From Hydrurus foetidus (lineage: Eukaryota), in assembly GCA_900617105.1 (NCBI GenBank), contig UYFQ01000842.1:1-64000 (forward strand): 64,000 nucleotides of DNA, written 5' to 3'. This document shows, one piece after another, positions 11,651 to 56,900 of this stretch (the first letter of the stretch is position 1; every line of letters starts with the position of its first letter). Both the position numbers and the translations under genes were made by a program. The notes below the pieces were generated by a model, which was given only the letters and a program-made list of their open reading frames with translations, did not search any database and was not told where the DNA came from.

Positions 11651-11713
11651 AATAAATGGGGTCAGATTCTAATTATTTGTTGAATGTTTTCATCGAGAAA
11701 TAAATGGGGACAT
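11651..11713. promoter_or_regulatory. Direct repeat AATAAATGGGG (x2) in the AT-rich spacer upstream of gltB and downstream of the Y1-HUH gene
   Basis: Identical 11-mers at 11651-11661 and 11699-11709, continuing as GGGGTCAG and GGGGACAT. Confidence 0.5.
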
Positions 11714-11765
11714 ATCAAAAATGATAGCTGCTAGCGCAATAAAATCGGGGGCTAGAGGCCGATTT
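11712..11765 (+). repeat. 55-bp palindromic repeat family, copy 1 (5' end eroded)
   Basis: ATATCAAAAATGATAGC-TGCTAGCGC-AATAAAAT-CGGGGGCTAGAGGCCGATTT; ends 5 nt from the stop codon of the Y1-HUH gene. Confidence 0.8.
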
Positions 11766-11770
11766 GGCAC

Positions 11771-12463
11771 CTAGCTTTCGGCACTAGAGGGTCTGCCAGG
11801 GCTGCTTTTGCTGAGCCGCCGAGGGGTTTTCATTTGGAGTTCGGACAGAAAACCCTCCTCCCCCAAAGCCCAGCCGCGCAGCACCGCGTCCGTCAAAGCC
11901 GCCTGCTGGCCCTGGCTGATGCCGTTTTGCACCAATTGGGCGTACGCGGCTTCGCGAGCGAAAGGCGTGTTGCCAAGGTTCCAGACCAAGGGATGGGGGG
12001 TGATCAGTTTGTCGGCCTGCAGGCCACTGTAGTGGCCGTGGCTGGACCACTGGTAGTCGCACGCTTGCGCCACCAGGCCTGCGCGCACGGGGTTCAGGTC
12101 GATGTAGGCCATGCAGGCCAGCAGGTACCGATCGGTCTCGATCAGGGTGGATTTGTAGCGCCCTTCCCATAGCGTGCCCGTGCGCTGGTAGCGGTCGTTG
12201 AAGTAGCGCACATAGCTGCGACCTACCGACTGCATCATCTTTGGCAGGGCCTCGTCGGTGGATGGCGTGGCCAGCAGGTGAAAGTGGTTGTCCATCAGCA
12301 CGTAGGCGTGGAGGGATATGCCGAACTTGCGGGCGTTCTCGTAGAACAAAGCCTGCAAGGTCTGGAAGTCTGCCGTGTCCAGGCAAATGGGCTGGCGGTT
12401 ATTGCCCCGCTGAACAACGTGGTGCGGGTAACCCGCGAGGGTCAAACGGGGAAGGCGTGCCAT
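11771..12463 (-). CDS. Stand-alone Y1 HUH endonuclease / REP-associated tyrosine transposase (RAYT-like, IS200-superfamily fold)
   Basis: HVVQRGNNR, HAYVLMDNHFHLL (HUH = HFH), LWEGRY, YIDLNPVRAG (putative catalytic Tyr), YQWSS; no adjacent tnpB. Confidence 0.9.
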   Translation of the reverse strand: MARLPRLTLAGYPHHVVQRGNNRQPICLDTADFQTLQALFYENARKFGISLHAYVLMDNHFHLLATPSTDEALPKMMQSVGRSYVRYFNDRYQRTGTLWEGRYKSTLIETDRYLLACMAYIDLNPVRAGLVAQACDYQWSSHGHYSGLQADKLITPHPLVWNLGNTPFAREAAYAQLVQNGISQGQQAALTDAVLRGWALGEEGFLSELQMKTPRRLSKSSPGRPSSAES

Positions 12464-12482
12464 GGGCGCTAGTTTGCCTCAA

Positions 12483-12500
12483 GCCAGCCGGTCGGCTGGC
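12483..12500. terminator. GC-rich hairpin between slyB and the Y1-HUH gene
   Basis: GCCAGCCG-GT-CGGCTGGC; no clear U tract. Confidence 0.35.
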
Positions 12501-12518
12501 CGGCACCCAGGACTTGCG

Positions 12519-12986: not shown

Positions 12987-13033
12987 CGAGCTCTCCAAAT
13001 CATTCATTCAAAACGCAATCTGCCCATAACGCC

Positions 13034-13960: not shown

Positions 13961-13972
13961 GAAAAGGCTTTC

Positions 13973-14542: not shown

Positions 14543-14545
14543 ACC

Positions 14546-15742
14546 CTACTCCACCAGCAGGCGCCGCCCGGTCAGGCGCTCATGCTCTCGAAGCGCGAAC
14601 CGGTCGGTCATACCGGCGATGTAGTCAGCGATAGTGCGGCGGAACGCGCTGGCATCACCCACCGCCTGCTGTGCGGCCAGCGCATGCGCGCCTGCGCCGC
14701 CCTGCATATGGGCGGGGGCCTGGCTGTAGGCATCGAAGAGCTCGCGCACCACCTGCTTGGCCGCATCCATGGTCTGCACCACCTGGGGATGGCGATAGAG
14801 CTGACGAAAGAGAAAGGACTTCAGCACCTTGGACTGTGCCCCCATGTCGGGAGTGAAACTGACCAAGGCGGGGCAGGCGCGCACGTCTTGCACACTGTGC
14901 GGCGTGTGCTCGTTCAATGCAGCCTGTGTGGCAGCGATCACGTCGTACACCTGATCACTGAGCATCAGGCGGATGGATTCGTATAGCAAGCGCCGCGACT
15001 GCCCAGCCTCTGCCAACGCCGGGTGCTGGTGCAAAGCAGCCTGGCAATAACCGTCAAACAACGGAACTTCCTGCATCTGGGCCAACGTCAACAAACCCGA
15101 GCGCACCCCATCATCAATGTCGTGCGCGTTATAGGCAATTTCGTCAGCCACATTGCACAGCTGGGCCTCCAGACTGGGCTGGGTGTGGTTCAGAAAACGC
15201 TGCCCTACCCCACCTGCGCCATCGGCAAACCTTGGCTCCTTCGCCTCCAGCAGTTCTGCATTGGTGCGTGAGCAGTGTTTCAGAATGCCCTCGCGCGATT
15301 CAAAGCTCAGGTTCAAGCCATCGAACTGCGGATAGCGCTCTTCCAGATGGTCCACCACGCGCAGGCTCTGCAGGTTGTGTTCAAAGCCCCCAAACGGCAC
15401 CATGCAGCCGTGCAGCGCGTCTTGACCGGCGTGGCCAAACGGCGTGTGGCCCAGGTCATGGGCCAGTGCAATGGTCTCCACCAAATCTTCGCTCAAACCC
15501 AGCGTGCGGGCAATCGAACGCCCCAGCTGCGCCACCTCCAACGAATGTGTCAACCGGGTGCGAAACAGGTCGCCCTCGTGGTTGATAAACACCTGGGTCT
15601 TGTACACGAGCCGCCGGAATGCGGTGGAGTGCACGATGCGATCGCGATCACGCTGAAACGCGGTGCGCGTGGGCGCCTGGGACTCCGCAAAGCGCCGACC
15701 GCGCGATTGGGCAGGGTCACAGGCGTAGAGCTGAAGGCTCAT
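14546..15742 (-). CDS. dgt: Deoxyguanosinetriphosphate triphosphohydrolase (HD domain)
   Basis: RDRDRIVHS, RTRLTHSLEV, HDLGHTPFGHAG, DYIAGMTD. Confidence 0.93.
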   Translation of the reverse strand: MSLQLYACDPAQSRGRRFAESQAPTRTAFQRDRDRIVHSTAFRRLVYKTQVFINHEGDLFRTRLTHSLEVAQLGRSIARTLGLSEDLVETIALAHDLGHTPFGHAGQDALHGCMVPFGGFEHNLQSLRVVDHLEERYPQFDGLNLSFESREGILKHCSRTNAELLEAKEPRFADGAGGVGQRFLNHTQPSLEAQLCNVADEIAYNAHDIDDGVRSGLLTLAQMQEVPLFDGYCQAALHQHPALAEAGQSRRLLYESIRLMLSDQVYDVIAATQAALNEHTPHSVQDVRACPALVSFTPDMGAQSKVLKSFLFRQLYRHPQVVQTMDAAKQVVRELFDAYSQAPAHMQGGAGAHALAAQQAVGDASAFRRTIADYIAGMTDRFALREHERLTGRRLLVE

Positions 15743-15746
15743 AGTT

Positions 15747-15801
15747 AAATTAGGCTATAGCCCCCATGGAATATGCGCCAGTAGCTATCATTAAAGTAGC
15801 A
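15747..15801 (-). repeat. 55-bp palindromic repeat family, copy 2
   Basis: Minus strand T-GCTACTTTAATGATAGC-TACTGGCGC-ATATTCCA-TGGGGGCTATAGCCTAATTT; fills 55 of the 60 nt between aroB and dgt. Confidence 0.88.
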
Positions 15802-15802
15802 C

Positions 15803-16912
15803 TCATGCGGCGCAGCAGGCATCAATCACTTCGCGGATCAGGGCATCTGGCGCACCGCGCACGGCCGCGTGCCCTGGACCATCAATGACCACAAAGCGGA
15901 TGTCGCCCGCCTCGGATTTCTTGTCCAGGCGCATCAACTCCAGGTAACGTCCCGCGTTGTCTTTTGCATCCAGCTGTGGCCCCACGATGGGGAGGCCAGC
16001 CTTCTGGATCAGGCCCGTCAGGCGCTCTACAAATGCCAAGTCCACCAATCCTAGCTTCTGCGACAAATGCGCCGCCATCACCATGCCGCAACCAACCGCT
16101 TCACCATGCAGCCATTCGCCATAACCCAGGCCAGCTTCGATCGCATGGCCGAAGGTATGCCCAAAGTTCAAAATCGCCCGCAGACCAGCCTCGCGCTCGT
16201 CCTGCCCAACCACCCAGGCCTTGATTTCGCAGCTGCGCCGCACGGCGTGGGCCAAGGCCACCGGGTCGCGGGCCAGCAAGGCGTCAAGGTTCACCTCAAT
16301 CCAGTCCAGGAAAGCCATATCGGCAATCGGACCGTACTTGATGACTTCCGCCAACCCGGCACTCAGTTCCCGCGTGGGCAGGGTCTTGAGCGTGTCCAGA
16401 TCGCAGACCACCAGCAGGGGCTGGTAAAAAGCGCCGATCATGTTCTTGCCCAAGGGGTGGTTGATGCCGGTCTTGCCACCCACGGAAGAATCCACCTGCG
16501 AAAGCAAGGTAGTTGGCACTTGAACAAACGGTACGCCTCGCATATAGCTGGCCGCCGCAAAACCGGTCATGTCGCCAACCACGCCACCGCCCAACGCAAA
16601 TAGGATGGTTTTTCGGTCGCAGGCCTCGGAGAGCAATGCGTCAAAAATCTGGTTGAGGGTTTGCCATGTCTTAAACACCTCGCCATCAGGCAGCGTAATT
16701 AGCTGGACGCTGGCATAGCGTACCTTCAGCGCAGAGAGCAATGCCCCGGCATACAAAGGCGCAACCGTGGTGTTGGAAACGATCACCGCGTGGCTAGCTT
16801 TAGGCAATGCGGCGTACACATCAGCAGTGCCCAGCAAACCCGTGCCCACCTGAATGGGATAGCTGCGCTCGGCCAGAGCAATATCTACGGTATGAAAATT
16901 CGGAGAGGTCAT
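15803..16912 (-). CDS. aroB: 3-dehydroquinate synthase
   Basis: [43 protein letters not shown]. Confidence 0.97.
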
Positions 16913-25566: not shown

Positions 25567-25743
25567 ATGCAAATTCTAGTCAGTCGCCTTGCCCTTGCCG
25601 CCAGTGTGCTCACTATGGCCGCTTGCGGGCAGACCGGCTCGCTGTATTTACCCCCCTCACAAACGCCGCGCAACACCAAAGCTGCGACTCCGCCCACGTC
25701 AAGCCCCGCTGCCACCAGCCCCACCCCGAACACCGCCCCATGA
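25567..25743 (+). CDS. lptM: Small lipoprotein LptM/YifL
   Basis: [29 protein letters not shown]: lipobox plus CGxxGxLYLP motif; cyaY-lipoprotein-lysA arrangement. Confidence 0.8.
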
Positions 25744-27023
25744 GCCTGCCCACACTTCCCGGACACCCCCATATCCACTACGCCAACGGCGAACTCCATG
25801 TGGAAGGCTGCGCAGTTGCTCCCCTGGCACAGCAGCATGGAACCCCCTTGTTTGTGTACTCCAAAGCCTCCATGCTGGCGGCGCTGGCGGCTTACCAAAA
25901 AGGCTTTGCGGGGCGTAACGCCCAGGTCTGCTACGCGATGAAAGCGAATACGTCGCTGGCTGTGCTGCAACTCTTCGCGAAGGCTGGTTGTGGCTTTGAC
26001 ATCGTTTCCGGTGGCGATCTTGCTCGTGTCATTGCTGCAGGTGGTGATACACGCAAAGTGATCTTCTCAGGCGTCGGTAAAACCCGTGCAGAAATGCGCG
26101 AGGCACTGCGCATCGGCATTGGCTGTTTCAATGTGGAGAGCGAGGCCGAGATCGATGTGCTCAACGAAGTCGCCGTCAGCGTGGGTACCAAGGCGCCGGT
26201 TAGCATCCGGGTGAACCCCAACGTCGACGCCAAGACCCATCCGTACATTTCCACGGGTCTCAAAGGCAACAAGTTCGGCATTGCGCATGAGCGCACTTTG
26301 ACCTCTTATCAGCGCGCCGCGGCCCTGCCCGGCCTGAAGGTCGTTGGCATTGACTGCCACATCGGCTCCCAGATCACCGAAGAGACCCCCTACCTGGACG
26401 CCATGGACCGCATGCTGGAGCTGGTGGAGTCCGTCGAGGCGGTGGGTATCCCCATCCACCACATCGACTTTGGTGGCGGCCTGGGCATCAATTACAACGG
26501 CGATACCCCACCCGCAGCCGATGCCCTGTGGGCCAAGCTGCTGGCCAAGCTGGATGCGCGCGGCTTTGGCCAGCGCCAGCTGATGATCGAGCCTGGCCGT
26601 TCCCTCGTGGGCAATGCGGGCATTTGTGTGACCGAGGTGCTCTACATGAAGCCCGGTGAGCAAAAGAACTTCTGCATCGTCGACGCTGCCATGAACGACC
26701 TGCCCCGCCCCGCGATGTACCAAGCGTTCCACAGCATCGTGCCGCTGGACGCCAGCAAATTGGCCGCCCCGAGTGGTGAGATATTCGATGTAGTGGGCCC
26801 AGTATGCGAAAGCGGCGACTGGATTGGTCACGACCGCGCGCTGAACGTGCAAGCGGGTGACCAGTTGGCCGTGCTGTCAGCAGGCGCCTACTGCATGAGT
26901 ATGGCCAGCAACTACAACTCGCGCCCCAAGGCGGCCGAGGTCTTGGTGGATGGAGACCACAGCCACTTGATCCGCGCACGCGACACGCTGGCAGACCAGA
27001 TGCGGGGCGAGAAGCTGCTGTAA
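25740..27023 (+). CDS. lysA: Diaminopimelate decarboxylase
   Basis: YAMKAN (PLP lysine), HPYISTG..NKFG, HIGSQ, EPGRSLVG, GPVCESGD. Confidence 0.97.
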   Translation: MSLPTLPGHPHIHYANGELHVEGCAVAPLAQQHGTPLFVYSKASMLAALAAYQKGFAGRNAQVCYAMKANTSLAVLQLFAKAGCGFDIVSGGDLARVIAAGGDTRKVIFSGVGKTRAEMREALRIGIGCFNVESEAEIDVLNEVAVSVGTKAPVSIRVNPNVDAKTHPYISTGLKGNKFGIAHERTLTSYQRAAALPGLKVVGIDCHIGSQITEETPYLDAMDRMLELVESVEAVGIPIHHIDFGGGLGINYNGDTPPAADALWAKLLAKLDARGFGQRQLMIEPGRSLVGNAGICVTEVLYMKPGEQKNFCIVDAAMNDLPRPAMYQAFHSIVPLDASKLAAPSGEIFDVVGPVCESGDWIGHDRALNVQAGDQLAVLSAGAYCMSMASNYNSRPKAAEVLVDGDHSHLIRARDTLADQMRGEKLL

Positions 27024-27025
27024 TT

Positions 27026-27080
27026 TGCTATTGATTCAATAGCTGCTTGCGTAGCGTTGACGGGGGCTAGCGCCGCTTTT
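27026..27080 (+). repeat. 55-bp palindromic repeat family, copy 3
   Basis: T-GCTATTGATTCAATAGC-TGCTTGCGT-AGCGTTGA-CGGGGGCTAGCGCCGCTTTT; between convergent lysA and msrQ and overlaps the msrQ stop. Confidence 0.88.
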
Positions 27081-27681
27081 TCTTTATAAACTGCAGTACA
27101 CGCCAGCCCAGCAGGATCCCCAAAATGGCGGCATACACCGCCACCTCGGCAAAGTTGTGCTTGCCAGCACGCATCCAGAAGAAATGCAAAATGGCCAGGC
27201 CCGCCACCGCGTAGACCGCGCGGTGCAGCGCCTGCCAGCGCTTGGCGCCCATGGCCTTGATCACGCGGTTGAACGACGTGGCCGCCAGTGCAGTCAGCAG
27301 TAACAAGGCCGTGAACCCCACCAGGATGAACGGCCGCTTGGCAATATCAGCCGCAATGTCGGCCACGTCCAGCCCCATGTCGAACCAGCTGTACGACAGC
27401 ATGTGCAGCACTGCATAGGCAAACGTCCACAGCCCCAGCATGCGGCGCAGTCGGGCCAGCGAAGGCCAGCCGGCGATGGTGCGAAGCGGGGTAACCGTCA
27501 GCACCACGCACAGCGCACGCAGCGTCCAGTCGCCCGTGGCCCGCACCAGCGCTTCCGCAGGGTTGGCGCCCAACCGATCGGCAAACGCCGCGTACACCAA
27601 CCAGATCAGAGGCAAAGCGGCCACGACAAACACCACCGGTTTGGCCGCGCGGTGGGCCAACCAAGAGTTCACGGTCGCCAC
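27067..27681 (-). CDS. msrQ: Methionine sulfoxide reductase heme-binding subunit MsrQ
   Basis: LTVTPLR, RRMLGL..F.YA.LH, WQALHRAVY. Confidence 0.93.
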   Translation of the reverse strand: MATVNSWLAHRAAKPVVFVVAALPLIWLVYAAFADRLGANPAEALVRATGDWTLRALCVVLTVTPLRTIAGWPSLARLRRMLGLWTFAYAVLHMLSYSWFDMGLDVADIAADIAKRPFILVGFTALLLLTALAATSFNRVIKAMGAKRWQALHRAVYAVAGLAILHFFWMRAGKHNFAEVAVYAAILGILLGWRVLQFIKKKRR

Positions 27682-39549: not shown

Positions 39550-41322
39550 ATGCAGGCCCACGCTTTGTCACACCGCGCACCGACCTGGCCCTGGCTGGTC
39601 CTGGTGTTCTTGGCAGCCACCCTCTACCTATTCGGCCTGGGCAACTTTTACGCCCCCACCAACGGCGACGAGATGGTTTACATCCACATCGCCCGCATGA
39701 CGGCCGAGAGCGGCCACTGGCTGCCGCTGCAGTCTGAGCTGGTGGGTACGCGCAATACCAAACCGCCGCTGTTGATCTGGCAGGCCATGGTGGCCGGTGG
39801 CTGGGGGCAGCACTGGAGCCTGTTCGCATTGCGCCTGCCCAGCATCGCCTACACCTTTGCCACCACTGCCCTGCTGGCCTTCTTTGCGCACCGCATGGCG
39901 CCCGCACCCGGCAAGCTGCGCGTGGCCTGCATTGCTGCCACGCTGTACCTGCTGTACTTCTCTACCTTCCGCTACGGCAGGGTGTACCTGACCTCTGCGC
40001 CCGAGACCTTCTGGCTGGCGCTGCCCATGTGGTGGCTGCTGTGGCTGCACCTGCGTGCGCCTGCCGTGCAGTCAGCCGCCCTGCAACTGGGTTGGTTGGC
40101 CTACACGCTGATCGGTGCGGCCATGGGCCTGGGGGCCGCCTACAAGTCGTTTGCGCTGGTGGCGCCCACGGCGGCGGCGCTTTGGTGCGCGGTGCTGCTC
40201 AGCGAACCCTGGAGCTGGCGCAGCACGCTGCGCACCACCATAGGCGTGACCTGGAGCACGCTTCTGGGCCTGGGCATCTTCGCGCTGTGGTTTGTGCTGG
40301 ACCCCAACCCCGCCGAGGTGTGGCAGGAGTTTGTAATGGCCGAGAACGCCGGCAAGATGTCCAGCAGCCTGGGCTACTGGCAGGCCGCGCTGGTTGGCGC
40401 CTACCCCATGTGGACCCAGCTGCTGGCCTACCCGGCCAACGGCGGCCTGTTGGCGCTGCCGGTGCTGGGCTTTTGCCTGCACGCGCTGGGGCGCGGCTGG
40501 CGCCCGCGCCACTACGCACAACTCAGCCCTGCGCTCTGGGTGCTGCTGGCCTGGCTGGTGGTGTGGCTGGTGGTGTTCACCATCCCCAACCAGCGATCGG
40601 AACGTTATGTGATTCCAGCCATGCCAGCGCTGGCCATTGCCATGGCGCTTCTCTGGGACCGCCTCAACCGCTTCTGGTTTGCCGCCACGCTGCTGATCAC
40701 CGTGCCTGCACTGGCCATGCTGGGTCGCATTGGCTGGGTCATGGGCAGCCTGGGTATGGCAAGCCCGTTTGAAGTTGCTATGACTTTGATAGCTGCTGGC
40801 GCAGGATTGGCGGGGGCTACAGCCGGATTTATTCGATTTTCTTGGGCGCGCAACGCGACACTGCTAGTCTGCCTGGCCGTGTATGGCTGCTTTTCGCTGA
40901 TGGTGCAACCCCTCTCGGGTGACGAAGCGGGCTACAGCGCCGCCGTGCAAAGCCAGACGAAGGGCCTGCGCCTGGCCGTACCCAATGGTTTTACCGGCCA
41001 GTACGAGCGCTTTCACTTTGTGCTGCCCGGTGCGCGCATCACGCCCTATGACGCCGAAGGCCGCAACACCGGTGCGCTCTACCCCGAAATGCCGCCCGCG
41101 GAACGCCTGGAACGCTTGTTGAAGGAGTTTGACGCTGTCGTATGGCTGCAAGACGATTTGGATGAACAACCCAGCTGCCTGCCCCACTGCACGGTGGTGG
41201 ACCAACGCTGGCATGTGAAAAGCCGCCACAAAGACGGCGAAGTGACGCTGGACAACCTGTGGCAACCCCAGCAGTGGCTGTTCCGCCGGGAGTGGTTGTT
41301 GACGCCTGCCGCAGGCGGCTGA
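39550..41322 (+). CDS. ArnT/PMT-like (GT-C) undecaprenyl-dependent glycosyltransferase
   Basis: Polytopic membrane protein; GDE..Y..IAR.M, KPPLLIW, LRLPS, YKS, RYVIPAMP. Confidence 0.82.
   Translation: MQAHALSHRAPTWPWLVLVFLAATLYLFGLGNFYAPTNGDEMVYIHIARMTAESGHWLPLQSELVGTRNTKPPLLIWQAMVAGGWGQHWSLFALRLPSIAYTFATTALLAFFAHRMAPAPGKLRVACIAATLYLLYFSTFRYGRVYLTSAPETFWLALPMWWLLWLHLRAPAVQSAALQLGWLAYTLIGAAMGLGAAYKSFALVAPTAAALWCAVLLSEPWSWRSTLRTTIGVTWSTLLGLGIFALWFVLDPNPAEVWQEFVMAENAGKMSSSLGYWQAALVGAYPMWTQLLAYPANGGLLALPVLGFCLHALGRGWRPRHYAQLSPALWVLLAWLVVWLVVFTIPNQRSERYVIPAMPALAIAMALLWDRLNRFWFAATLLITVPALAMLGRIGWVMGSLGMASPFEVAMTLIAAGAGLAGATAGFIRFSWARNATLLVCLAVYGCFSLMVQPLSGDEAGYSAAVQSQTKGLRLAVPNGFTGQYERFHFVLPGARITPYDAEGRNTGALYPEMPPAERLERLLKEFDAVVWLQDDLDEQPSCLPHCTVVDQRWHVKSRHKDGEVTLDNLWQPQQWLFRREWLLTPAAGG
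40776..40830 (+). repeat. 55-bp palindromic repeat family, copy 4 (in frame inside the ArnT-like gene)
   Basis: T-GCTATGACTTTGATAGC-TGCTGGCGC-AGGATTGG-CGGGGGCTACAGCCGGATTT; encodes AMTLIAAGAGLAGATAGF. Confidence 0.85.
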
Positions 41323-41368: not shown

Positions 41369-41381
41369 CCCCCCCCCCCCC
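41369..41381. repeat. C13 homopolymer, intergenic
   Basis: 13 consecutive C between the ArnT-like stop and the terminator. Confidence 0.8.
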
Positions 41382-41821: not shown

Positions 41822-42167
41822 GGTGGGATCTTTCAAAAAGCGCTCGCAGTTCCAATGAACCACGTAACGCAGGGGGAATGACGGTCTTGGTTAAAAACCA
41901 TCGCATTCGGGAGAACCGGCGTCCATGCACCGGATCTGCATCCAGCGCTTGGGCCCAAGTCAGGTGTTTGGTCGGGAGAAAAAGGGGACCGGAGTAAAGC
42001 TCGCCGCTGGGGGAGTTTGACAACCGGGAGGGCCGAGACTATCGGCCAAAAAGGTGCGGAGGCGGCGTATGGGGTGCCGCAGACCGTGTCAGACTGCAAA
42101 CACTGCAAGGTAAGCAAAATGCAGCGTCACTCGCGATTTTACCCCTGATCCAGCGCGCAGGGGCCGA

Positions 42168-43265: not shown

Positions 43266-43300
43266 GTCAGTTTTTCTTAAGAAGGGGGTGCGGCGCGGCC

Positions 43301-44161: not shown

Positions 44162-44165
44162 GGGG

Positions 44166-45200: not shown

Positions 45201-45253
45201 GGGGCATGGGGGTGGAGGTGCGCAAACCTGCGCCTCTCCACCCGGCTTGCTGC

Positions 45254-46507
45254 TTACTTGCGGGCGCGGCGTTCTACCTGCCGTTGGGCATCGGCCAACG
45301 CGGTCTTGATGTCTTTGTTCTCGTCCAGTACCTTGGCCAGTTCGGCGTTCATGATTTCGTCGGCAATCGGGTCCAGCTTGTTCACGTCGATGGCGGGAAT
45401 CTTGGCTGCGGCCGTGCGCCACAGCTGGCGGGCCTTTTGCCCACCGAAGAAGTCCACGGGCTTATCCACGAAGGCGTCGTTGGCCGCGTCAATCAGGGCT
45501 GGGAACGCGTCCAAACCATTGAAGGCGGCGATCTGCATTTCCTTGTTGGTGGTCATGAAGGTGATGAAATCCCACGCCATCTTCTTTTTGTCATCGGCAA
45601 TTTTCTTGGGGATGGCGTAGAACGAACCGCCCCACGAGGCGTAGGCACCGTTGGGCAACGCAGAAGCACGCCACTTGCCCTTGGTCTCGGGGGCCAACCA
45701 GCTGGACAACTGGCCCAGCATCCAGGCACCGCGCATTTCGGTCACAAAGCTGCCGCGCTTGAAGCCTTCCGACCATTCGTTGGTCCAGGGCAGGATCTTG
45801 GCGTCCAGGCCGGCGACCCGCACCGCCTTGGCGTATTCAAACGCCTTCTCGAAACGGGGCGTGGTCAACAGGGGCTTGTTGCTCTTGTCAAAGAAGATGC
45901 CTTCACCGTCCTTGATGTTGGATCGGATGTACACATCGCTGACCGAGTTGGCATGGGGCACCAGATAGGCACCTGTCTTTTCCTTGATGGTCTTGCCGGC
46001 CTGGATGTAAGAGTCCCAGCTCTGAATCAGTTGGGCATTGGTCACACCGGCCTTGTCCAGAATGTCCTGGCGAATCAACAGCGTGCCGGGGCCAATGTCT
46101 GCGGGCATGGCAGCCAGCACACCGCCATTGCTGGTGGCCTGGGCAAAGGTGTACTTGACGATCTTGTCTCGGTAGTCGAGCGCGTTGTAGGGTGGCTTGG
46201 ACAGGTCTTCCACCGCGCCAGATTCGGCAAACTTGCCAATGAAGCCTACTTCTACGGCCATCACGTCCGGCAGGCCGGCCCCCGTCGCCAGCGCAGTGAC
46301 CATGGCATTGTGGTGGTCCCCATAGCCCAGGCTTACGAGTTTGATGTCGACTTCAGGGTGGATTTTCTTGTACAGGGGAATCGCGATCTTCACGGCTTCG
46401 TCGAAGCTGGGAAAGGACGCAACGGTCAGTGTTTTTTGCTGTGCCAGGGCCGTGCTGCCCATGGCGGCGGCCAGCAGGCTGAGCGTGACGAGTGGAAGTT
46501 TTTTCAT
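45254..46507 (-). CDS. Carbohydrate ABC substrate-binding protein (family 1)
   Basis: Signal peptide; PDV..EV, WGGSFYAIP; CUT1 operon context. Confidence 0.92.
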   Translation of the reverse strand: MKKLPLVTLSLLAAAMGSTALAQQKTLTVASFPSFDEAVKIAIPLYKKIHPEVDIKLVSLGYGDHHNAMVTALATGAGLPDVMAVEVGFIGKFAESGAVEDLSKPPYNALDYRDKIVKYTFAQATSNGGVLAAMPADIGPGTLLIRQDILDKAGVTNAQLIQSWDSYIQAGKTIKEKTGAYLVPHANSVSDVYIRSNIKDGEGIFFDKSNKPLLTTPRFEKAFEYAKAVRVAGLDAKILPWTNEWSEGFKRGSFVTEMRGAWMLGQLSSWLAPETKGKWRASALPNGAYASWGGSFYAIPKKIADDKKKMAWDFITFMTTNKEMQIAAFNGLDAFPALIDAANDAFVDKPVDFFGGQKARQLWRTAAAKIPAIDVNKLDPIADEIMNAELAKVLDENKDIKTALADAQRQVERRARK

Positions 46508-46607
46508 GGTGTGAATCCTCAGTTTCTAGTTGTTGCGCGCCGCAGACATTGCGGTGCAGGGTGGAAAGACCGGGTGGGTGGGGTGAAACGCGATGGCAGC
46601 TACCTCC

Positions 46608-49049
46608 TCATGGGGGTTCGGAACAGGTGGCAAGCGGCTGAACGGGCAGCAGCTCGCAGTGGCTTTCCATGCGCCAGTGCTGGGGCAGTGGGCGTGTCTG
46701 GCTACCCATGACTTCAAACGCGGCGCGCAGCAGAATGTTTGCACTGGACGCGCCAACCATCAGGTCAAACCAGCCCGGCTCCACCACACGGCGGCTGCTG
46801 TGGTCGGTCAGGCACAGCATGTCCACCGGAATGCGAAAGCGAAGAGTGCGCTGCATTTGTGCGGGAATGTCCACGCGCTGAAAGGCCTTGAGTTCTTTCA
46901 CGGGACGTACTACGGATGCATTGCGGTCCCGCAGATACACCTGCACGACTTCCACACCCGCGTGCTCGCCCACGTTGGCCACATCCAGCGCGAACACCAC
47001 ATCGCCGTCTTCAATGGCGACGCGCGGTGTCTGTAGTACCAGGTTTTGGTAGCGAAACCGGGTATAGCTCAGCCCATGGCCAAACGGGTATGGGCTGCCA
47101 AAGTGAAAGGCCACCGGAGCCCCCGCACTCTTGAGCTTGTGGTTGTAAAAAATGGGCGTCGCCCCCGCACTCACCGGGACCGAAATGCTCATGCGACCCG
47201 AAGGCTGGCTGAGCCCGGCCATGACGTTGGCCAGTGCGGTCCCCACCGCCTGCCCGCCCGAGAAATTCATCACAAAGGCCGCCACCTGATTTTCCAGGCC
47301 ACCCAGGTTGTAGGGGCGGCCACCCGACAGCACCACGATGGTGGGGGTCTGCGTCGCCACCACGCGTTCCAGCAATTGCTGTTGCACCCCGGGCAGGGTC
47401 AGCGAATCGGTGTCCGAGCCCTCCCCCACCGTGCCGGTCTGGAACAGTCCGGCCAGGTCACCCACAAACACCATGGCGACATCGGCCTGGGCGGCCCCGT
47501 TGACCGCCTCGTCGATCAGGTCGGTGCGCATGGACACGGGTGACACCGGCTTTTCTCCGGCTTGGTCACGCACATCCCCGGGGAACACGGGCGATCCGGG
47601 CACACGCTCCTCCAGAATCACGCAGCCCGGCGCGAAACGCACGCAGTCAGGCCCATAGACTTTTTGCAGGCCTGCCAGCGGCGTCTCTATGCGGTCTGCC
47701 GTCTCCTGCGAGCCCTGCAAAATCACATGCACCGGGAAGCTGTAGCCACTCAAATGCGCCAGCGGGTCCGCCGCGTTGGGGCCAATGACGGCAATGCGCA
47801 GCCCCGGCTGCGGCCGCAGCGGCAAGATCCCCCGGTTCTCCAGAATCACCACCGACTCGGTGGCCACTTCCAGCGCCAGGTCGCGGCCGTACTGGGTGTT
47901 CAGTTGCAGGGTTGCCGGGTCTTCAAAGCGGGCCTCGAACAGGCCAAGCCGGAATTTCTCGCGCAAGATGCGGCTGACGATGCCATCCACGCGCTCCATG
48001 CGGATTAGCTTGCGCGCCATCGCCTGCTCCAGCTCCTTCACACAGTCGTCTCCGGGTAGCTCCACATCCAGCCCCGCGTTGAACGCCAGCGCCGCGGCCT
48101 CGGCGGCATCGCTGGCCACGCCGTGGTGCTGGTGCAGCAGGCTGATGCCTACATAGTCCGCCACCACCAGACCGTCGAAGCCCCACTGGTCTCGCAACAC
48201 ATCCGTCAGCAGGTGGGTCGAGGCATGGGCAGGTTCGCCATCGATGTCGTGGTAGGCCGGCATCACCGAGCCCGCGTTGGCCTGCTTCACCGCCATCTCG
48301 AATGGCAGCAGAAAAGTGTCGTTGAGTTCGCGCCAGCCCAGATTGACCGGCGCGTGGTTGCGCGCGCCTTCGCTGAACGAGTGGCCCACAAAATGTTTCA
48401 GCGTGGCCAGCACATCGCGCCGCGGACCCTGCAGCCCCCGCACATAGCGCGTGGCCAGCACGCCCACGAGGTAGGGGTCTTCGCCAAAGGTTTCTTCGGT
48501 GCGCCCCCAGCGCACGTCGCGCGACACGTCCAGCACTGGCGCCAAGCCCTGGTGGCAACCCACGGCGCGGCATTCCTGGCCAATGTGGGCGGCCACGCGT
48601 TCGATCAATTCAGGGTTCCACGTGGCCCCATAGGCCAGCGCGGAAGGAAACAGCGTGCCATCGCGCGTCATGAGGCCGGTCAGGCACTCTTCGTGGGAGA
48701 TCGCGGGAATGCCCAGGCGGGTCTCGTGCACCAGAAAGCGCTGCAGGCGGTTCAGCGCCCGCAGGCCGGAGAGCGCGTCCACGCCGTGCGTGCCCATGGC
48801 CCGCGTTACTTGCCCCAGCCCCTGACGCAAACGCAGCTGCAATGCCTCGGGCGTAGTCGATCCATCGGGGTTGTCATCCGCACGGAAGTGGTGGTCACCC
48901 GTCTCGGACAGCACCATCCAGTAGCCGTGCATTTGGGCTATTTTTTCGGCCACCGTCATGCGGCCCAGCAGGTCGGCCACGCGCAGGTCAACGGGCTGGC
49001 GCGGGTCCTTGTAGAGGGCCTGGTTCAAAGGAATATCTTTAGCGTTCAT
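46608..49049 (-). CDS. GH3 beta-glucosidase/beta-xylosidase, no signal peptide
   Basis: RLGIP..HEECL, RWGRTEETFGEDP, KHF, VVADY nucleophile, PFGHGLSYT, Fn3-like C-terminus. Confidence 0.93.
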   Translation of the reverse strand: MNAKDIPLNQALYKDPRQPVDLRVADLLGRMTVAEKIAQMHGYWMVLSETGDHHFRADDNPDGSTTPEALQLRLRQGLGQVTRAMGTHGVDALSGLRALNRLQRFLVHETRLGIPAISHEECLTGLMTRDGTLFPSALAYGATWNPELIERVAAHIGQECRAVGCHQGLAPVLDVSRDVRWGRTEETFGEDPYLVGVLATRYVRGLQGPRRDVLATLKHFVGHSFSEGARNHAPVNLGWRELNDTFLLPFEMAVKQANAGSVMPAYHDIDGEPAHASTHLLTDVLRDQWGFDGLVVADYVGISLLHQHHGVASDAAEAAALAFNAGLDVELPGDDCVKELEQAMARKLIRMERVDGIVSRILREKFRLGLFEARFEDPATLQLNTQYGRDLALEVATESVVILENRGILPLRPQPGLRIAVIGPNAADPLAHLSGYSFPVHVILQGSQETADRIETPLAGLQKVYGPDCVRFAPGCVILEERVPGSPVFPGDVRDQAGEKPVSPVSMRTDLIDEAVNGAAQADVAMVFVGDLAGLFQTGTVGEGSDTDSLTLPGVQQQLLERVVATQTPTIVVLSGGRPYNLGGLENQVAAFVMNFSGGQAVGTALANVMAGLSQPSGRMSISVPVSAGATPIFYNHKLKSAGAPVAFHFGSPYPFGHGLSYTRFRYQNLVLQTPRVAIEDGDVVFALDVANVGEHAGVEVVQVYLRDRNASVVRPVKELKAFQRVDIPAQMQRTLRFRIPVDMLCLTDHSSRRVVEPGWFDLMVGASSANILLRAAFEVMGSQTRPLPQHWRMESHCELLPVQPLATCSEPP

Positions 49050-49050
49050 A

Positions 49051-49190
49051 CAAACGTAACGTTATCGCTAACGTTTGTTATTAACATCAGTATTTACCCT
49101 TCATTGCCTCTCATAAGCTGAACCCCCTCTTGGAAGCGGGGCCTGCGAACCAAGACCATAATTTGCAGTGAAGCGTTATGATTAACGTAC
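49051..49190. promoter_or_regulatory. Divergent promoter region with LacI-type operator-like palindromes
   Basis: TAACGTTA (49057-49064), TAACGTTT (49069-49076), AAGCGTTA and TTAACGTA (49171-49189); CG-centred cores typical of LacI/GalR sites. Confidence 0.65.
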
Positions 49191-49206
49191 TTTCCACGCC
49201 CACGAC

Positions 49207-50223
49207 ATGCCCCGTAAGTCCATCACCCTGAACGAAGTTGCCGCCGCGGCGGGCGTCTCGACCATGACCGCCTCCCGCGCAATCAACCACCAGACCGGCG
49301 TGTCGACCAAAACCCGCGAAGCCATCCTCAAACTGGCGGCGGACATGGGCTATTCGGCCAACCGCAGCGCGCAAAAGTTGTCTACCGGGCGCAACCGCGT
49401 GATTGGCGTGCTGGCCGCAGAGCTGGACAACCCCTTCATCGGCGCGCTGGTGTCCGGCGCGGTGCGCGCGGCGGCCGTGGCGGGGCATGAGGTGCTGATC
49501 TATTCACTGGTAGACCACGCCGGGCACCCCACGGGCAATGTGATGGATTTGTTGCAGCAGTTCACCGACGGAGTGATCGCCGTGTTGCCCTACCAGTTTG
49601 GCTTTGTAGAGCAGCTCTCCGTGGCCATGCACCCGGTCATCACGATTGACCACCACAGCGAGCATTCCGAATTTCCGTCCGTCGCGGCCGACAGCTACGG
49701 CGGCGCCCGCAAGGCCCTGCAACACCTGGCCGACTTGGGGCACACACGCATCGCCTTCCTCACAGGTGACGAAGCCCTGGGGTCGGCCCGGGACCGGCAC
49801 CGCGCCTACGACGATGCCGTCAAACTGATGGACCTGGAGGCCGATGCAACCCTGGTGCTGCAGGGCGACTATTCGCTGCGCGGCGGCCAGGAGGCCGGCC
49901 ACAAGCTGCTCAAGATGCGCAAAAAACCCACCGCTGTTTTTGCTTGCAACGACATGAGCGCGCTAGGCATGATGTCCGTGCTGCAGTCTGCCGGCCTGCG
50001 CGTGCCGGAAGACATTTCCATCGTCGGGTTCGACGACCTGCCCATTGCCAGCCAGATTCACCCCGGCCTGACCACGGTCCGCCAGCCCATTGGCGAAATG
50101 GGGCGCGCCGCGGTCAATGCGTTGCTGACCCTGATTGCCGGCATGGAAGTCGCCAGCGCAGAAATCGTCCTGCCCACCAGCTTGGTCGTGCGCGAATCCA
50201 CCATGGCATTGAAGAAGAAATAA
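49207..50223 (+). CDS. LacI-family transcriptional regulator
   Basis: TLNEVAAAAGVSTMTASRAIN helix-turn-helix; VPEDISIVGFDD; LTTVRQP. Confidence 0.96.
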   Translation: MPRKSITLNEVAAAAGVSTMTASRAINHQTGVSTKTREAILKLAADMGYSANRSAQKLSTGRNRVIGVLAAELDNPFIGALVSGAVRAAAVAGHEVLIYSLVDHAGHPTGNVMDLLQQFTDGVIAVLPYQFGFVEQLSVAMHPVITIDHHSEHSEFPSVAADSYGGARKALQHLADLGHTRIAFLTGDEALGSARDRHRAYDDAVKLMDLEADATLVLQGDYSLRGGQEAGHKLLKMRKKPTAVFACNDMSALGMMSVLQSAGLRVPEDISIVGFDDLPIASQIHPGLTTVRQPIGEMGRAAVNALLTLIAGMEVASAEIVLPTSLVVRESTMALKKK

Positions 50224-50272
50224 GGCTCTAGCCCGCGTGGAATATGCGCCAGCAGCTACTTATTTAATAGCG
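50218..50272 (-). repeat. 55-bp palindromic repeat family, copy 5
   Basis: Minus strand C-GCTATTAAATAAGTAGC-TGCTGGCGC-ATATTCCA-CGCGGGCTAGAGCCTTATTT; contains the stop codons of both convergent neighbours. Confidence 0.88.
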
Positions 50273-50962
50273 CCGCAATGCCACCCGCAGCAGGTAACCG
50301 TGCAGGGCCAGCCAGAGCCAGGGGTCCAGCACCGCGTCCCACACATTGCCCGTGGGCAAGCGCAGCGCGACAAACGCCACCACCGCCAGCGGAACCACCC
50401 AAGCCAAGGGCCGGCTGCCGGTTTGCGAATTGGACAGCACCAGCCCCAGACTTACCCAGGCCACCAGCGCCACCGCCAGCGGACTGAAGCCCCAAGCATA
50501 GAGAGACACGGGCAAGGGCAGCAGCGCAAAGACATCGAACAGCAGCGCCCACCCCAACAGCACACCCGCAAAGGCCAGTGGCGCCAGCCCCCGCACCGGC
50601 GCGGGGGTGCGCCGCGTGGCCCAGGCTGGCGGCGGCTTGCGCAGGCGCCGCAACAGCAGGCGGATGCACAGCAGCACCAGCACGACACTGGGCTGCTGAA
50701 ATGCCAGCCCCAGCCAGTAGGCCGGGGACCAGGGGTCGGGCAGCCACATGCTGGCCAGCACCAGCGCCGCCACCGTGAGCACGGCGGCACGGTAGGGCGT
50801 CCACCAGCCTACCAGCACACAGCCCAGCCACGCCAGCACCACGCCCCAGCCCAGGTGCAGCCAGCCTTGGGTTAGCTCCAGCGAAGGCAGGGCCGGCGCA
50901 TCAGTCGCCACCACGGTGCTGACCAGGTGCAGCAGTCCGTTGATCAGGCTGTCTGGGCTCAT
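50264..50962 (-). CDS. Hypothetical polytopic membrane protein
   Basis: Several hydrophobic segments; C-terminal NVWDAVLDPWLW; ATG overlaps the upstream stop. Confidence 0.75.
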   Translation of the reverse strand: MSPDSLINGLLHLVSTVVATDAPALPSLELTQGWLHLGWGVVLAWLGCVLVGWWTPYRAAVLTVAALVLASMWLPDPWSPAYWLGLAFQQPSVVLVLLCIRLLLRRLRKPPPAWATRRTPAPVRGLAPLAFAGVLLGWALLFDVFALLPLPVSLYAWGFSPLAVALVAWVSLGLVLSNSQTGSRPLAWVVPLAVVAFVALRLPTGNVWDAVLDPWLWLALHGYLLRVALRRY

Positions 50963-53277: not shown

Positions 53278-53283
53278 AGGACG

Positions 53284-53934
53284 CTAGCCCTTCTTCGCGT
53301 TCACCCCAAACGCATCCACCAGCCCCGCCATCTCAGCACCGGCCTCGGTGCCCAGGCCCTGCAGCCCCTGCTGCACGGTCACCTGGTTGGCTTCGGGCTG
53401 GTTCTGGCTGACCTTCCATTTGCCAAACAGCGCATCGATGGGAATCTCAATCCCGACTACGGCGCCCAGCAGCTTGTCGGTGTAACCGGGCGGGGCATCG
53501 TCCACGCGCCAGGGGTGCACCATGCCGGCCTCCTGCTGGCCGGTCAGCTCCACCATTTGGGCCCGTATCCAGGCCGCGTCGTCGCGAACCTGCAGCGTGC
53601 CCTTGGCATGCACCACCGCATAGTTCCACGTAGGCACCACCTTGCCGTGCTCGGCCTTGCTGGCATACCAGCCGGGGCTGATGTAGTGCTGTGGACCCTG
53701 GAAGATGGCCAACACCGGCATGGCCAGATCGGCGTCGCGCCACAGGCGGTTGGCGCGTGCCACGTGGCCCACCAGCGTGGGGCGTTCCACACCCTGGGTG
53801 CGCAATTACAGAGGAATGTGGTTCGCCTCCAACCCCTGGGCCGTCAGCGTCACCAGCGTGGCCAGCGGGTGGCTGCGCAGCAGCGCGTGCAGCACCTCGG
53901 CGCGGGTTTCTTCAAATTGGCTGTTGTTGTACAT
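53284..53934 (-). pseudogene. PaiB-type FMN-binding protein with an in-frame TAA at codon 43
   Basis: MYNNSQFEE..HPLATLVT..ANHIPL-TAA(53806-53808)-LRT..GHVARAN..YISPGWY..VPTWNY..GKWKVSQN, all in one frame. Confidence 0.75.
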
Positions 53935-53944
53935 GGGCCCTCGC

Positions 53945-56900
53945 CTACTGCATGGTCAGGTTCAGCTCGGCCTGGGGCTTGGCGTCTGCGGCACGGCCGG
54001 TGGTCTTGGTGGCACCCAGGAACAGGCGCTCGGCCGGCACCTTCTGCGTGGCCAGGTAGTCCTTCACCACCACGCCGCGTTGCAGCGCCAGTTCGCGGAT
54101 GGTGTCGCCGCTGACCGTGATGTTGGCCAGCAGCAGGGCCTCCATGTCGGGCACCTCGATATCCTTGGTCAGCCCTACCAGGTTGCGCGGCTTGGTGATG
54201 TCCGCGCGACGGTACACGGCGCGCAGCAGCGCGGACATTTCTTCCGGCGTGTAGCCCGCCACGGTTGCGGCGTCTTCCCCCTGGCCGCTGGCGCGACGCC
54301 GCTTCTCGGCCAGCAGCAGGCCCCTGAGTTTCTCGCGCTTGACGGCTTCGCGTTCGGCCTCCAGCTGGGCCTGACCCACCACGGTGAGCGTGAGTGCGGG
54401 GCGATCCACCAGCGCCTTGGCCACCTTGTCCAGGCCGGTGCGCGCAGCATCGCTGAGCACGCCGCTGCCAGGGGCAAACGCCACCGTGCTGAGCTCTGAA
54501 CTGCTGCCACCACCAAAGGCATTGGCCAGCAAGCTGAAGGGCGAGGTAATGGCCTTGACCACCAGGTTGGTGATGACTTTCCAGATTACCGGGCCGATGC
54601 GGAACTGCGGGTCGTTCAGTGAGCCGCTGATGGGCAGATCCAGGTCGATCACGCCGTTGCGGTCGGCCAGCAGGGCCACCGCCAGTTTCACCGGCAGGCT
54701 GTTGGGCGCTCCCTCCACCTTGTCGCCAAAGCTCAGTTGGTTCAGCACCAGCTTGTTGCTGGCGGTGAGCTGACCGTCGGGTTGCACCGCGTAGCGCACG
54801 TCCACACTGAGCTTGCCGCGTTCGATGCCGTAGCCCGCGTACTTCACGGCGTAAGGCGAGAGCGGCGGCAGCTCCAGGTCGCGCACCTTGCCTGCAATGT
54901 CCAGCGCCAGCGGCTTGGCCAGCGGATTCAGCTTGCCCGTGATCTCCAGCGAGGCCGTACCTTCGGCGCGACCGCGCAGTTCGAGGTCGGCCAGCTGCAC
55001 CACGCCACTGCTGGGCTGGCTGGAGAACTGGCTGAGCTTGCCGGTCAGGTCGCTCAGGTCGGCCGTGTAGTTGGGCTGGATAAAGCGGTCCGAGAACAAC
55101 ACCTTGCCGTTCACCAGGCTGATGGGGCCTACGGTGATGATGGCGTCGGGTGCTGCATGGGTGGGGCCTGCCGCTGCGGCCGCTGCGGCAGGCCCGGCAG
55201 GCGCGGGCGTCTTCATCAGTTCCTGCAGGTTCAGGCGCCCCGCGGGACTGACGATGAGGCGGGCATAGAAATCGGACAACGCGGCCTCGCGCACCGCCAC
55301 GCGGGTGGCGGCGCCTGGCACCATGACCAGGTCGATGCCGGGCACGTTGAGTGCCTTCCAGCTCAGCAGCTCTTCGGCAAAGCCACCGCTTGGGCCCTGT
55401 ACGGTGTTGGCGCGGAAGTCGTCCAGCTGGGCATCGCCCTTGAGCGCCATGTCAGGCCCGTTGGGTGTGCTGGCAAAGCGCAGCTGACCCTTGAAGCTGG
55501 CATCGGCGCGCAGCACGTCCAGGTTGATCTGGTCGGCAAAGTAGGGGACCAGCGCATGCAGCGGCAAATCCTGCAGCGCCACACTGCCCTGGGCCTGCAC
55601 CGGGTCCCAGGCGGCGGTGCCCTGGTAACGCAGGCTGCCGGCCTCGGCCTGGCCCGATTTCACGCGCGCGCTCAGCGTGAGCAGCACCGGCTTTTTGCCA
55701 TCCAGCTGCGCGTCCTTCAGCAGCAGGTTCAGTGCCGACACCTCCAGCCGCACCGGGCGGTTGTGGGTGCGGTCGGACACCACGGCGCTGGCGTCCTGCA
55801 CATTCAGTTCGCCCAGTGCCACCTTCCAGGGCGGCGTTGCTACGGTGGCTGGTTTGTCCTTTGCGGGCTTCAGCCAGCTCTGGAAAATCCACTGCCCATC
55901 GGCCTCGCGCCGCACACCGGAGCTGGCACGTTGCAGCAGCACCTTGCCCACGCGGGCGGTGCGCGCCGTGGGGTCGGCCTGTACATCAGTGATCTCCAGC
56001 AGCTTGAACTGCGGCAGGTCGGACGACGAAGGGCCGTTGGCCGTGCGGGCGATGCGATCGCCCGCCACGGGCTGGGTGGCCACCAGGCCTGCATCGCGCA
56101 CAGCCAGGCGCTGCGCCGTGACCGTGACCTGCTCGCCTTGCCAGCTGGCGCCCAGTTGGGCATCCAGCAGGCCGCGCACCGCAGGCTCCAGAAACTGCGC
56201 CGTATAAGGCGCGGCCAGTGCCAGCGACATGTCATTCACCGTGGCCTGGACTCGGCCCTGCTGCAGCGTGCCGTCCAGTTTGAAGGCCAGGCGCGCCGCC
56301 GTGCCCTTGCCCGGCACCGTGGCCGAGCCTTCGGCAGTGACCGGCTTGTCCATGGGCCATTGCAGGCCCTGGGCGGTGAACGCCACGTCCGCCAGGGCCA
56401 GCTTGGCCGCAGGCTGGGTCTGCTGGTCCAGCCAGTCCACCGTGCCACCCGTCAGGGCCAGGCGCTCCAGCTGCAGCGTCCAGGGTGCGGGGGCCGCTGC
56501 GGCAGGCGTTTTAGCATCTTTTTGGCCTGTAGCCCCCGTGGAATATGCGCGAGCAGCTCCTTTTTTAGGAGCACTCTCCGCTGGCTTGCCACTGGCCAGG
56601 TCCAGATTCAGGTGACCGTTGCGGGCACGTACCACCTGCAGGTGCGGGTTGGTGACCGTGATGGCAGAGAGCTTGACGATCTGCTCCAGCGGTCGCACAT
56701 CGGCCACCTCGGTACGCACCGTGTCTACCGCCAGCAGCGGCGCACCTGCCGCATCGGCCACGGCGAGCTGGCTGACCGTCACCACGCCCGACAGGCTGAC
56801 CGAGGCTTGCGGGGTCTGCACAAAACCGATCTTGAGCTCGGCGTTCACCACCGCGCTTTGCGGTTTTACTGGCAGGCTGGCTGGCAAATAGGACAGGTAC

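Follow-up and report, generated by a model that had tools for sequence, protein, structure and literature searches.

Small dispersed repeats of bacterial genomes are usually filed as decaying selfish DNA. The closest described systems couple such a repeat to an enzyme of the Y1-HUH type, which acts on short single-stranded DNA (ssDNA) hairpins (Quentin et al. 2018). Genes for REP-associated tyrosine transposases (RAYTs; REP, repetitive extragenic palindrome) have the repeat on both sides, and their flanks contain 16-mers that rank with the most abundant of the genome; in the parts of the source used here, highly abundant flanking 16-mers are given for groups 2 and 3 only (Bertels 2017). The TnpA-Y1 subclass 2.1, which is Bertels group 1, is prevalent in beta-proteobacteria and is probably the TIRYT class, and according to the sections used here no REP-like sequence was found near its genes (Quentin et al. 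2018). It is described by the motifs NHVH or NH[YF]H, W[EQ], and YIELNP or Y[IV]HLNP at a median length of 238 aa (Quentin et al. 2018, Table 1), and motifs of the GGGGWSAS type have been reported for TIRYT ends (Quentin et al. 2018; Di Nocera 2013). The latter work also mentions the Rickettsia palindromic elements (RPE). Bordetella and the Comamonadaceae have a further dispersed repeat, BRE, which is ~90 bp long with 69% GC, is often found in tandem and counts 29 copies in Polaromonas JS666 and 4 in R. ferrireducens T118 (Hot et al. 2011, PMC3110155). Here, we analyze a dispersed repeat in a stretch of 64,000 nt (contig UYFQ01000842.1, positions 1 to 64,000, of assembly GCA_900617105.1, deposited under Hydrurus foetidus), which we refer to as the window. 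An initial annotation had described six palindromic elements of 55 bp, one of them abutting a stand-alone Y1-HUH gene, and had proposed a REP/RAYT-type system. The repeat is real, abundant and unusual in its upkeep and its gene placement: Rhodoferax-type Comamonadaceae carry hundreds of copies per genome, and about a third of these occupy in-frame positions within genes. The REP/RAYT interpretation stands on weaker ground. A distinct and abundant repeat class was borne out, but the adjoining enzyme was not supported as the one that spreads it.

Within the window, the core pattern AGCTNCTNGCGNA-N8-GNGGGCTA matches exactly the six annotated sites, where 0.28 matches are expected and none of 100 shuffles gave six. 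The alignment of these copies has 19 invariant columns. In agreement with the annotation, the spacer ATATTCCA is common to copies 2, 5 and 6 and the 5' arm is missing from copy 1; we add a seventh, degenerate copy in the 3' end of gltB. The length of 55 nt had to be corrected, since conservation over 120 copies from other genomes begins 18 nt ahead of the core start, ends 50 nt beyond it and gives a unit of ~68 nt. Its consensus is GCTAY-N7-RTAGC, TGCTNGCGCA, N7, ACGGGGGCTAGAGGCC, ATTT. The 5-nt arms GCTAY and RTAGC flank an AT-rich N7, the central TGCTNGCGCA is separated from box B (ACGGGGGCTAGAGGCC) by the second N7 spacer, and box B is followed by ATTT and a weak A-rich tail. About 24 positions across 60 nt are strongly conserved.

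The architecture of the unit is not REP-like. The arms do not covary: in 119 copies, the fourth pair is C-G in 2 (1.9 expected), the fifth is C-G in 15 (11.8 expected), and GCTCC is combined with ATAGC at chance frequency. Thus, it is the sequence of the arms that is conserved and not their pairing. Folding of the copies as ssDNA was not better than that of shuffled sequences (z-scores -1.9 to +0.3). Apart from the 5-bp arm pair, the consensus of 120 and of 160 copies contains no long palindrome and neither a GTAG nor a CGTC foot, as had been proposed for a distinct repeat class. The ends, TTGCTAT... and ...GGCCNATTT, are not complementary and hence form no terminal inverted repeat, the best 4-nt duplication at any pair of boundaries occurs in only 5 of 122 copies, and doublets are absent, with 1 of 157 neighbour gaps below 300 nt and that pair in direct orientation. 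A miniature inverted-repeat transposable element derived from a DDE transposase was rejected on the lack of terminal inverted repeats and target-site duplications. The annotation had left room for a match to a repeat already described. A search of both strands of the window returned no Rfam family at the gathering score, our literature search, in which the supplement of Hot et al. 2011 was the one covered, yielded no published description, and the sequence of BRE is different.

The expectation of many more copies genome-wide was amply confirmed. Scanning one genome per species, we found the core pattern in at least 124 places; 121 of the 124 listed carry the whole unit by eye, and the hosts among the matches listed are Rhodoferax, Curvibacter, Polaromonas and other Comamonadaceae. 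Strict copies number 18, 107, 187, 46 and 11 in five related genomes, and the reversed control gave 0. The closest relative compared is Rhodoferax saidenbachensis BE308 (G003 in our genome numbering), which shares ~85-89% DNA identity over the window. In 1.2 Mb of its DNA a profile hidden Markov model (HMM) detects 160 copies, one per 7.5 kb, and the commonest 16-mers (up to 10 occurrences) all derive from the element, which by these counts is the only prominent repeat family there. The strict pattern is matched in 56 of the 101 genomes of the genus and in 20 of the 301 of the family, figures that undercount the repeat, since genome G369 has a single strict copy genome-wide and 86 HMM hits in 800 kb. 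A sequence-only model that scored at most 32 candidates per genome recovered the unit in 54 of 150 family genomes, and in ~28 of these 54 at least 20 of the scored candidates matched. The number of copies, like their positions, is a direct observation.

The copies are old and are conserved where they stand. Among 116 copies of G003, none of the 6,670 pairs reaches 90% identity (maximum 89.7%). All window copies except c5 have an orthologue in G003. In the five orthologous pairs, 3 of 120 box positions are mismatched compared to 44 of 185 non-box positions (p 6.6e-8), a difference that is somewhat inflated because both copies of a pair had to be recognisable; all three box mismatches fall in c1, which adjoins the HUH gene. 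In this sense, both the age of the copies and the slow divergence of their boxes are directly seen. A different dialect is found in G369 (C1:1-800000, L324-L363), where the 86 HMM hits keep GCTAY..RTAGC and ACGGGGGCTAGAGGCC.ATTT, but the central TGCTNGCGC box is near random and the C at position 32 drops to a frequency of 0.22 from 0.98 in G003. The box-by-box conservation at shared sites, taken together with this dialect, indicates that the constraint acts in place and differs between lineages.

The placement of the copies relative to genes is likewise unusual. Judged by our gene calls, which follow a codon-usage heuristic, 61 of 166 copies (37%) lie inside genes. There, 29 of 31 antisense copies use one frame and 24 of 30 sense copies use one frame, and these are the two frames in which the unit itself is free of stops, a property read directly from the sequence. 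A protein alignment spanning the site in another genome backs 20 of the 61 placements. Of the intergenic copies, 37 lie in convergent, 56 in tandem and 10 in divergent spacers, against a background of 165, 768 and 165 such spacers, which amounts to a ~3-fold excess in convergent spacers. In tandem spacers no preference for an orientation is visible (29 sense, 27 antisense). Overall, copy density is ~10-fold higher in non-coding DNA; in intergenic DNA, a copy occurs about every 1.4 kb. Copies frequently provide the stop codons of genes on either side, and in 12 of 66 co-oriented cases the copy begins 2-3 nt past the stop codon. By supplying stops and being open in two frames the unit confuses gene calling, and it accounts for AT-rich islands within the GC-rich genes of these genomes.

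At some sites the copies add length. The initial annotation had suggested a comparison of filled and empty sites, which was only partly successful: the c3 site is filled in G003, G002 and G004 and empty in G001, where the spacer is ~51 nt shorter, but no clean filled and empty pair between close genomes was found. Therefore, the insertion step is one that we infer, and the ends given here for the element are provisional. A second site with net extra length is the N-terminus of an rpoS-like gene (L198, G003:C1:280001-300000, ~295-370), which is ~60 nt longer than in three genomes lacking the copy. This gene lies downstream of an nlpD-like gene, and its variable N-terminus is ~20 codons shorter in the three genomes where no copy is present. 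Comparison with G369, which has its own dialect, gave a mixed picture, with 9 of 16 spanning alignments gapless and 7 of 16 containing gaps of 4-8 residues.

Features of the repeat and of the adjoining Y1-HUH gene in the window. Spans of c1 to c6 are from the profile HMM, which was built from 121 copies; ORF, open reading frame.
Feature	Position	Strand	Core-pattern match	Description
c1	11712..11776 (HMM 11718-11776)	+	11726-11754+	44.8 bits, model positions 15-73
c2	15739..15804	-	15758-15786-	core pattern and HMM
c3	27022..27093	+	27041-27069+	core pattern and HMM; between convergent genes
c4	40772..40833	+	40791-40819+	in frame in a 572-codon membrane-protein ORF (39604-41322); encodes VAMTLIAAGAGLAGATAGFIRF
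c5	50209..50273	-	50229-50257-	between a convergent LacI-type regulator (49207-50223) and ORF 50264-50962
c6	56508..56576	-	56530-56558-	in frame in a DUF748/AsmA-like gene (53945-57688), linker; encodes SAPKKGAARAYSTGATGQKDAK
Seventh copy, degenerate	6874..6930	+		inside gltB 3' end, antisense to gltB
Y1-HUH gene	11771..12463	-		230 aa, motifs NHFH, WE, YIDLNP; upstream of gltB
Direct AAATGGGG(T/A)CA motifs	11654..11713 (region); GGGGTCAG 11658-11665, GGGGACAT 11706-11713	+		fit or nearly fit GGGGWSAS

The individual copies of the window illustrate these placements. The 5'-truncated c1 has the resident CATATC in place of the GCTAY arm; it is antisense to both of its neighbour genes, and its orthologue is present but decaying in related genomes. 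Copy c2 fills the entire spacer between aroB (15803-16912) and an HD-domain dGTPase-like gene (14546-15742), and its site is filled in G003, G002, G004 and, in worn form, G001, but not in G005. Copy c3 begins 2 nt past the stop codon that ends a PLP decarboxylase gene (25623-27023). A ferric-reductase-like gene on the minus strand (27067-27681) takes its stop from the CTA of this copy and its last codons from the copy's tail. Within c3, ~6 of 8 spacer positions differ between the window and G003 while the flanks match, a difference that looks like conversion. The c4 codons are element-like also in G001, G002, G331 and G005. Copy c5 sits at the right edge of an 8-kb block (42151-50262) that is replaced by ~1 kb in G003. 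It is absent from the matching G003 junction, but since this junction is the edge of the 8-kb indel it is not a clean empty site. The peptide and the DNA motif of c6 are kept at the same place in four other genomes at 45-88% protein identity. The seventh copy falls below the HMM threshold in the window, and its G003 orthologue scores 27.8 bits.

Some further observations concern the surroundings of these copies. The gltB gene (6861-11652) is split into the overlapping ORFs 6861-7538 and 7522-11652, and near 7556 and 7568 the window is one G short of G003 in each of two GG runs 12 nt from each other, which points to either a frameshift in the gene or a sequencing error. Directly past the gltB stop, a 62-nt stretch (6799-6861) is absent from G003. 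It contains the imperfect palindrome 6811-6851, GGGGACAGAGCAGATTTG...CAAATCCTGGTCTGTCCC, with an end resembling the TIRYT motif GGGGWSAS, and is either a recent small insertion or a terminator. At 41369-41381 the window has a run of 13 C where G003 has an 11-kb block that is missing from the window.

That c1 ends 5 nt from the stop codon of an intact Y1-HUH gene, as annotated, can be read directly from the sequence; its HMM-defined tail abuts this stop. The gene product matches Pfam Y1_Tnp (E 6.9e-13) and reaches 78.4 bits with NCBIfam REP_Tyr_transpos (cut-off 80). By sequence, its only match in the PDB is E. coli TnpA-REP (4ER8, E 0.0015), and the HUH and YxxxNP tyrosine motifs are intact. 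It has the motifs of subclass 2.1, with YIDLNP as one conservative change, and hence fits a gene of the TIRYT type (TnpA-Y1 subclass 2.1). The protein of G003 is 94% identical. Each of the five relatives checked has one copy of the gene, in conserved order with gltB. The two GGGG motifs of the table lie between the HUH gene and the gltB promoter, on the 3' side of the HUH gene only and in direct orientation. Full inverted GGGGWSAS ends were seen only at the orthologue of a paralogue in genome G154, described below. A GGGACA/GGGGTCA motif is found by eye at 28 of 33 HUH loci of the genus, repeat-less genomes included, and GGGGWSAS as such is not enriched, with 92 forward and 81 reverse occurrences in 1.2 Mb (control 110/115). 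The promoter upstream of gltB is of the sigma-54 type (TGGCAC-N5-TTGCA, 11630-11645, minus strand) and is kept in five genomes. Two other candidate partners of the enzyme were discarded. A miniature family with GGGGWSAS ends found no support, since the motif shows no enrichment and forms 3 inverted pairs over 1.2 Mb compared to 1 in the control. A GC-rich hairpin at 12483-12500, upstream of the HUH gene, was considered as a true REP but occurs only there, and it is probably the terminator of the preceding gene.

The co-occurrence of gene and repeat, which the annotation had put forward as a check, turned out to be high and uninformative. A HUH homologue is present in 278 of 301 family genomes. 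It accompanies the repeat in 52 of 54 repeat-bearing family genomes, but also occurs in 19 of the 20 repeat-less genomes listed; among genus genomes, it was detected in 33 of the 36 that have 4 or more strict copies and in 43 of the 45 that have no strict copy. With so widespread a gene, co-occurrence cannot discriminate. The flank copy is present at 9 of 33 genus HUH loci, of which 8 belong to the 13 repeat-rich genomes (at least 4 strict copies) and 1 to the 20 repeat-poor ones. No abundant 16-mer flanks the gene (maximum 2 occurrences in 1.2 Mb of G003). The flank copy thus has the appearance of a single old insertion beside a resident motif. The claim that this enzyme spreads the repeat is not supported: the gene is near-universal, its subclass is one reported without REPs, and the flank copy is one-sided, truncated and decaying. 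The HUH gene is probably only a neighbour of the repeat and not its dedicated mobiliser; the link to the enzyme is weak, and we doubt it.

A paralogue of the HUH protein, RAYT-2 (43-46% identical, with the motifs NHVH, WE and YIELNP), was considered as the real mobiliser. In G347 and G398 its gene has one copy of the unit 36-58 nt upstream and another 38-74 nt downstream, both antisense. As the two loci are orthologous, this bracketing represents one evolutionary event. The paralogue occurs in 5 of 101 genus genomes, once with an internal stop and twice truncated, and in 1 of 301 family genomes (G154), and the repeat-rich genomes G003, G331 and G002 are without it. In G154 (L309, G154:C2:108666-112370) the orthologue has perfect inverted GGGGCCAGGCTCG ends (~1420-1480 and ~2250-2275), the left one duplicated, and the locus is a clean TIRtron without a copy of the element. 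G398, where the paralogue is intact, contains no young repeats (maximum 83.8% among 39 copies). The paralogue was rejected as mobiliser because it is rare, is broken or cut in three of five genomes, is not accompanied by young copies in G398 and has ends of its own in G154.

Our preferred reading, to which we give a probability of about 50%, is that of an old dispersed family of ~68 bp that would have spread long ago as a gene-less selfish element, and whose boxes would be held in place by a trans-acting factor or by copy-correction, with the HUH gene as a neighbour that would not be a dedicated mobiliser. An origin by insertion is suggested by the net extra length at some sites, the 3-fold convergent excess and the stops supplied by the element. 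That a factor reading the boxes maintains them is likewise suggested by G369, in which the arms and box B are kept and the central TGCTNGCGC drifts. Where the unit overlies resident codons, other copies might have served as donors for short-patch conversion or template switching, with selection on the protein acting as a filter; this is the process that we favour. Several observations weigh against this reading. Besides the missing clean pair of filled and empty sites and the inflated box conservation, these include the overlays without length change, which simple insertion does not explain. Copy c4 overlies a membrane helix codon for codon at unchanged length, and the corresponding stretch has ordinary GC-rich codons, the same length and no gap in the 48% identical homologue of G004 and in the homologue of G374. 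In G374, a genome without an HMM hit in the 172 kb read and without a strict copy genome-wide, 3 of 3 intragenic sites (4 alignments) compare without a change of length. The gene calls are heuristic, and alignments support no more than 20 of the 61 intragenic placements. The remaining points concern the enzyme. The flank copy is kept at 9 of 33 genus loci and always antisense to the HUH gene, the paralogue of G347 and G398 is bracketed by copies, and by GC skew the copies lean to the lagging strand, 94 to 66.

These latter points speak for a REP/RAYT system, in which the HUH enzyme or its paralogue would recognise the small hairpins of the element on ssDNA, would have spread the copies and would perhaps still correct them. 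The known hairpin substrates of HUH enzymes (Quentin et al. 2018), the copy at the HUH stop of the window, the concentration of the flank copies in genomes with at least 4 strict copies, the strand bias and the fact that the unit is the only prominent repeat family in the genome agree with it; by our estimate the two flanks of the paralogue plus the first would arise by chance with ~0.2%. The gene is also present in 28 of 28 repeat-rich family genomes, but as 92% of the family genomes have it with or without the repeat, such an outcome would arise by chance in about one case out of ten. The contig of G374 carries the HUH gene and no copy in 172 kb, the subclass is reported without REPs in the parts used here of Quentin et al. 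(2018), and the conserved flank motif of the gene is GGGGWSAS-like and not the element. The flank copy loses further weight since its phylogenetic pattern is shared by old copies at conserved loci in general, c2 and c6 among them. With the clean TIRtron of G154, the rarity of the paralogue, its absence from repeat-rich genomes and the lack of young copies in G398, we regard such a system as rather unlikely. A transcribed RNA element, acting as small RNA, 3'-UTR stabiliser or weak terminator (GGGC-TAGA-GCCC then T's), could explain why many copies begin 2-3 nt past a stop, and box B with ATTT is predicted from sequence to form a hairpin of 4-5 bp followed by T's. We consider it highly improbable, because tandem spacers show no orientation preference, half of the intragenic copies are antisense, no Rfam family was matched in the window, folding does not exceed that of shuffles and the first hairpin lacks covariation.

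The overlays bear on two other explanations. One is a non-mobile, genome-wide signal in double-stranded DNA, either nucleoid- or chromosome-organising or uptake-like, that would be read by a host factor, written into resident sequence by drive, either biased conversion or biased uptake with recombination, and kept by selection. It would fit with copies lying over homologous protein segments at constant length (c4 and the sites compared to G374), with boxes kept in place while loops randomise, with the absence of identical copies, and with the nearly equal use of strands and even orientation in tandem spacers and inside genes (30 versus 31). The lineage-wide shift in a constrained box points to a trans-acting reader, and arms without covariation point to a conserved sequence. 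We nevertheless hold this to be unlikely: ~24 conserved positions in 60 nt are far above the known uptake or binding signals and are hard to reach via point changes, at some sites a net 50-60 nt have been inserted, copies are ~10-fold denser in non-coding DNA and we found no candidate reader protein. The other is a self-maintaining signature, in which a multi-box word of ~60 nt would be written over resident sequence, conserved codons included, without length change and would then stay letter-perfect at hundreds of fixed sites for a time that outlasts the survival of neutral DNA. The keeper would be a trans-acting, lineage-specific reader (central box constrained in the G003 type and free in the G369 type) that could be a domesticated Y1-HUH enzyme serving as copy-corrector and not as transposase. 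This is a tentative proposal that we think is probably wrong.

Thus, the commonest repeat of a widespread freshwater and soil group of bacteria is old, immobile as far as seen, and yet conserved box by box, and about a third of its copies are translated within ordinary proteins, in the case of c4 as a membrane helix. If overlay without length change and lineage-specific constraint on the boxes are both true, a process exists that rewrites and then polices ~60 nt at hundreds of loci. This would be a new source of change in protein sequence and a tractable case for the role of domesticated Y1-HUH genes.

Compared to known systems, the unit resembles REP/BIME/REPIN-RAYT systems of Enterobacteria and Pseudomonas in being a short, gene-less and long-lived repeat with hundreds of copies, most of them at gene ends and in convergent spacers, and in sharing its genome with a Y1-HUH gene that has a copy beside it. 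It differs in that it has no GC-rich palindrome of 20-40 nt, no GTAG or CGTC foot, no inverted doublets and no master sequence with identical copies, and in that 37% of its copies are inside genes. Unlike a RAYT gene, the HUH gene is flanked on its 3' side only, by a truncated copy and without an abundant flank 16-mer, and it belongs to a subclass reported without REPs in the sections used here (Quentin et al. 2018). For the HUH gene itself, TIRYT/TIRtron (Di Nocera 2013; equal to subclass 2.1 and Bertels group 1) is the closest family with respect to length, motifs and the GGGGWSAS-like flank. In contrast to a TIRtron, the gene of the window is fixed and single-copy beside gltB across the family, with GGGG motifs that are 3' only and direct. 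An identity of the unit with BRE was rejected, as by eye it shares no box with the single BRE example sequence compared, taken from the supplement of PMC3110155. What the two have in common is that they are dispersed repeats that lie partly inside genes.

The uptake sequences USS and DUS (uptake signal sequence, DNA uptake sequence) of Pasteurellaceae and Neisseriaceae have ~9-12 conserved bases and occur about once per kb. Like these, the unit is found on both strands, uses tolerated frames in genes, can be accommodated without a change in length, is conserved in place and forms lineage dialects; unlike these, it counts ~24 conserved bases in 60 nt, and its frequency is one per 7.5 kb. The RPE, finally, lie in frame inside functional genes and are translated with the protein, and the copies of our unit do the same. 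The sequence and the host are unrelated, and the unit is shorter. Unlike the RPE, it is conserved as DNA, silent positions included, and can lie over resident codons with no gain in length.

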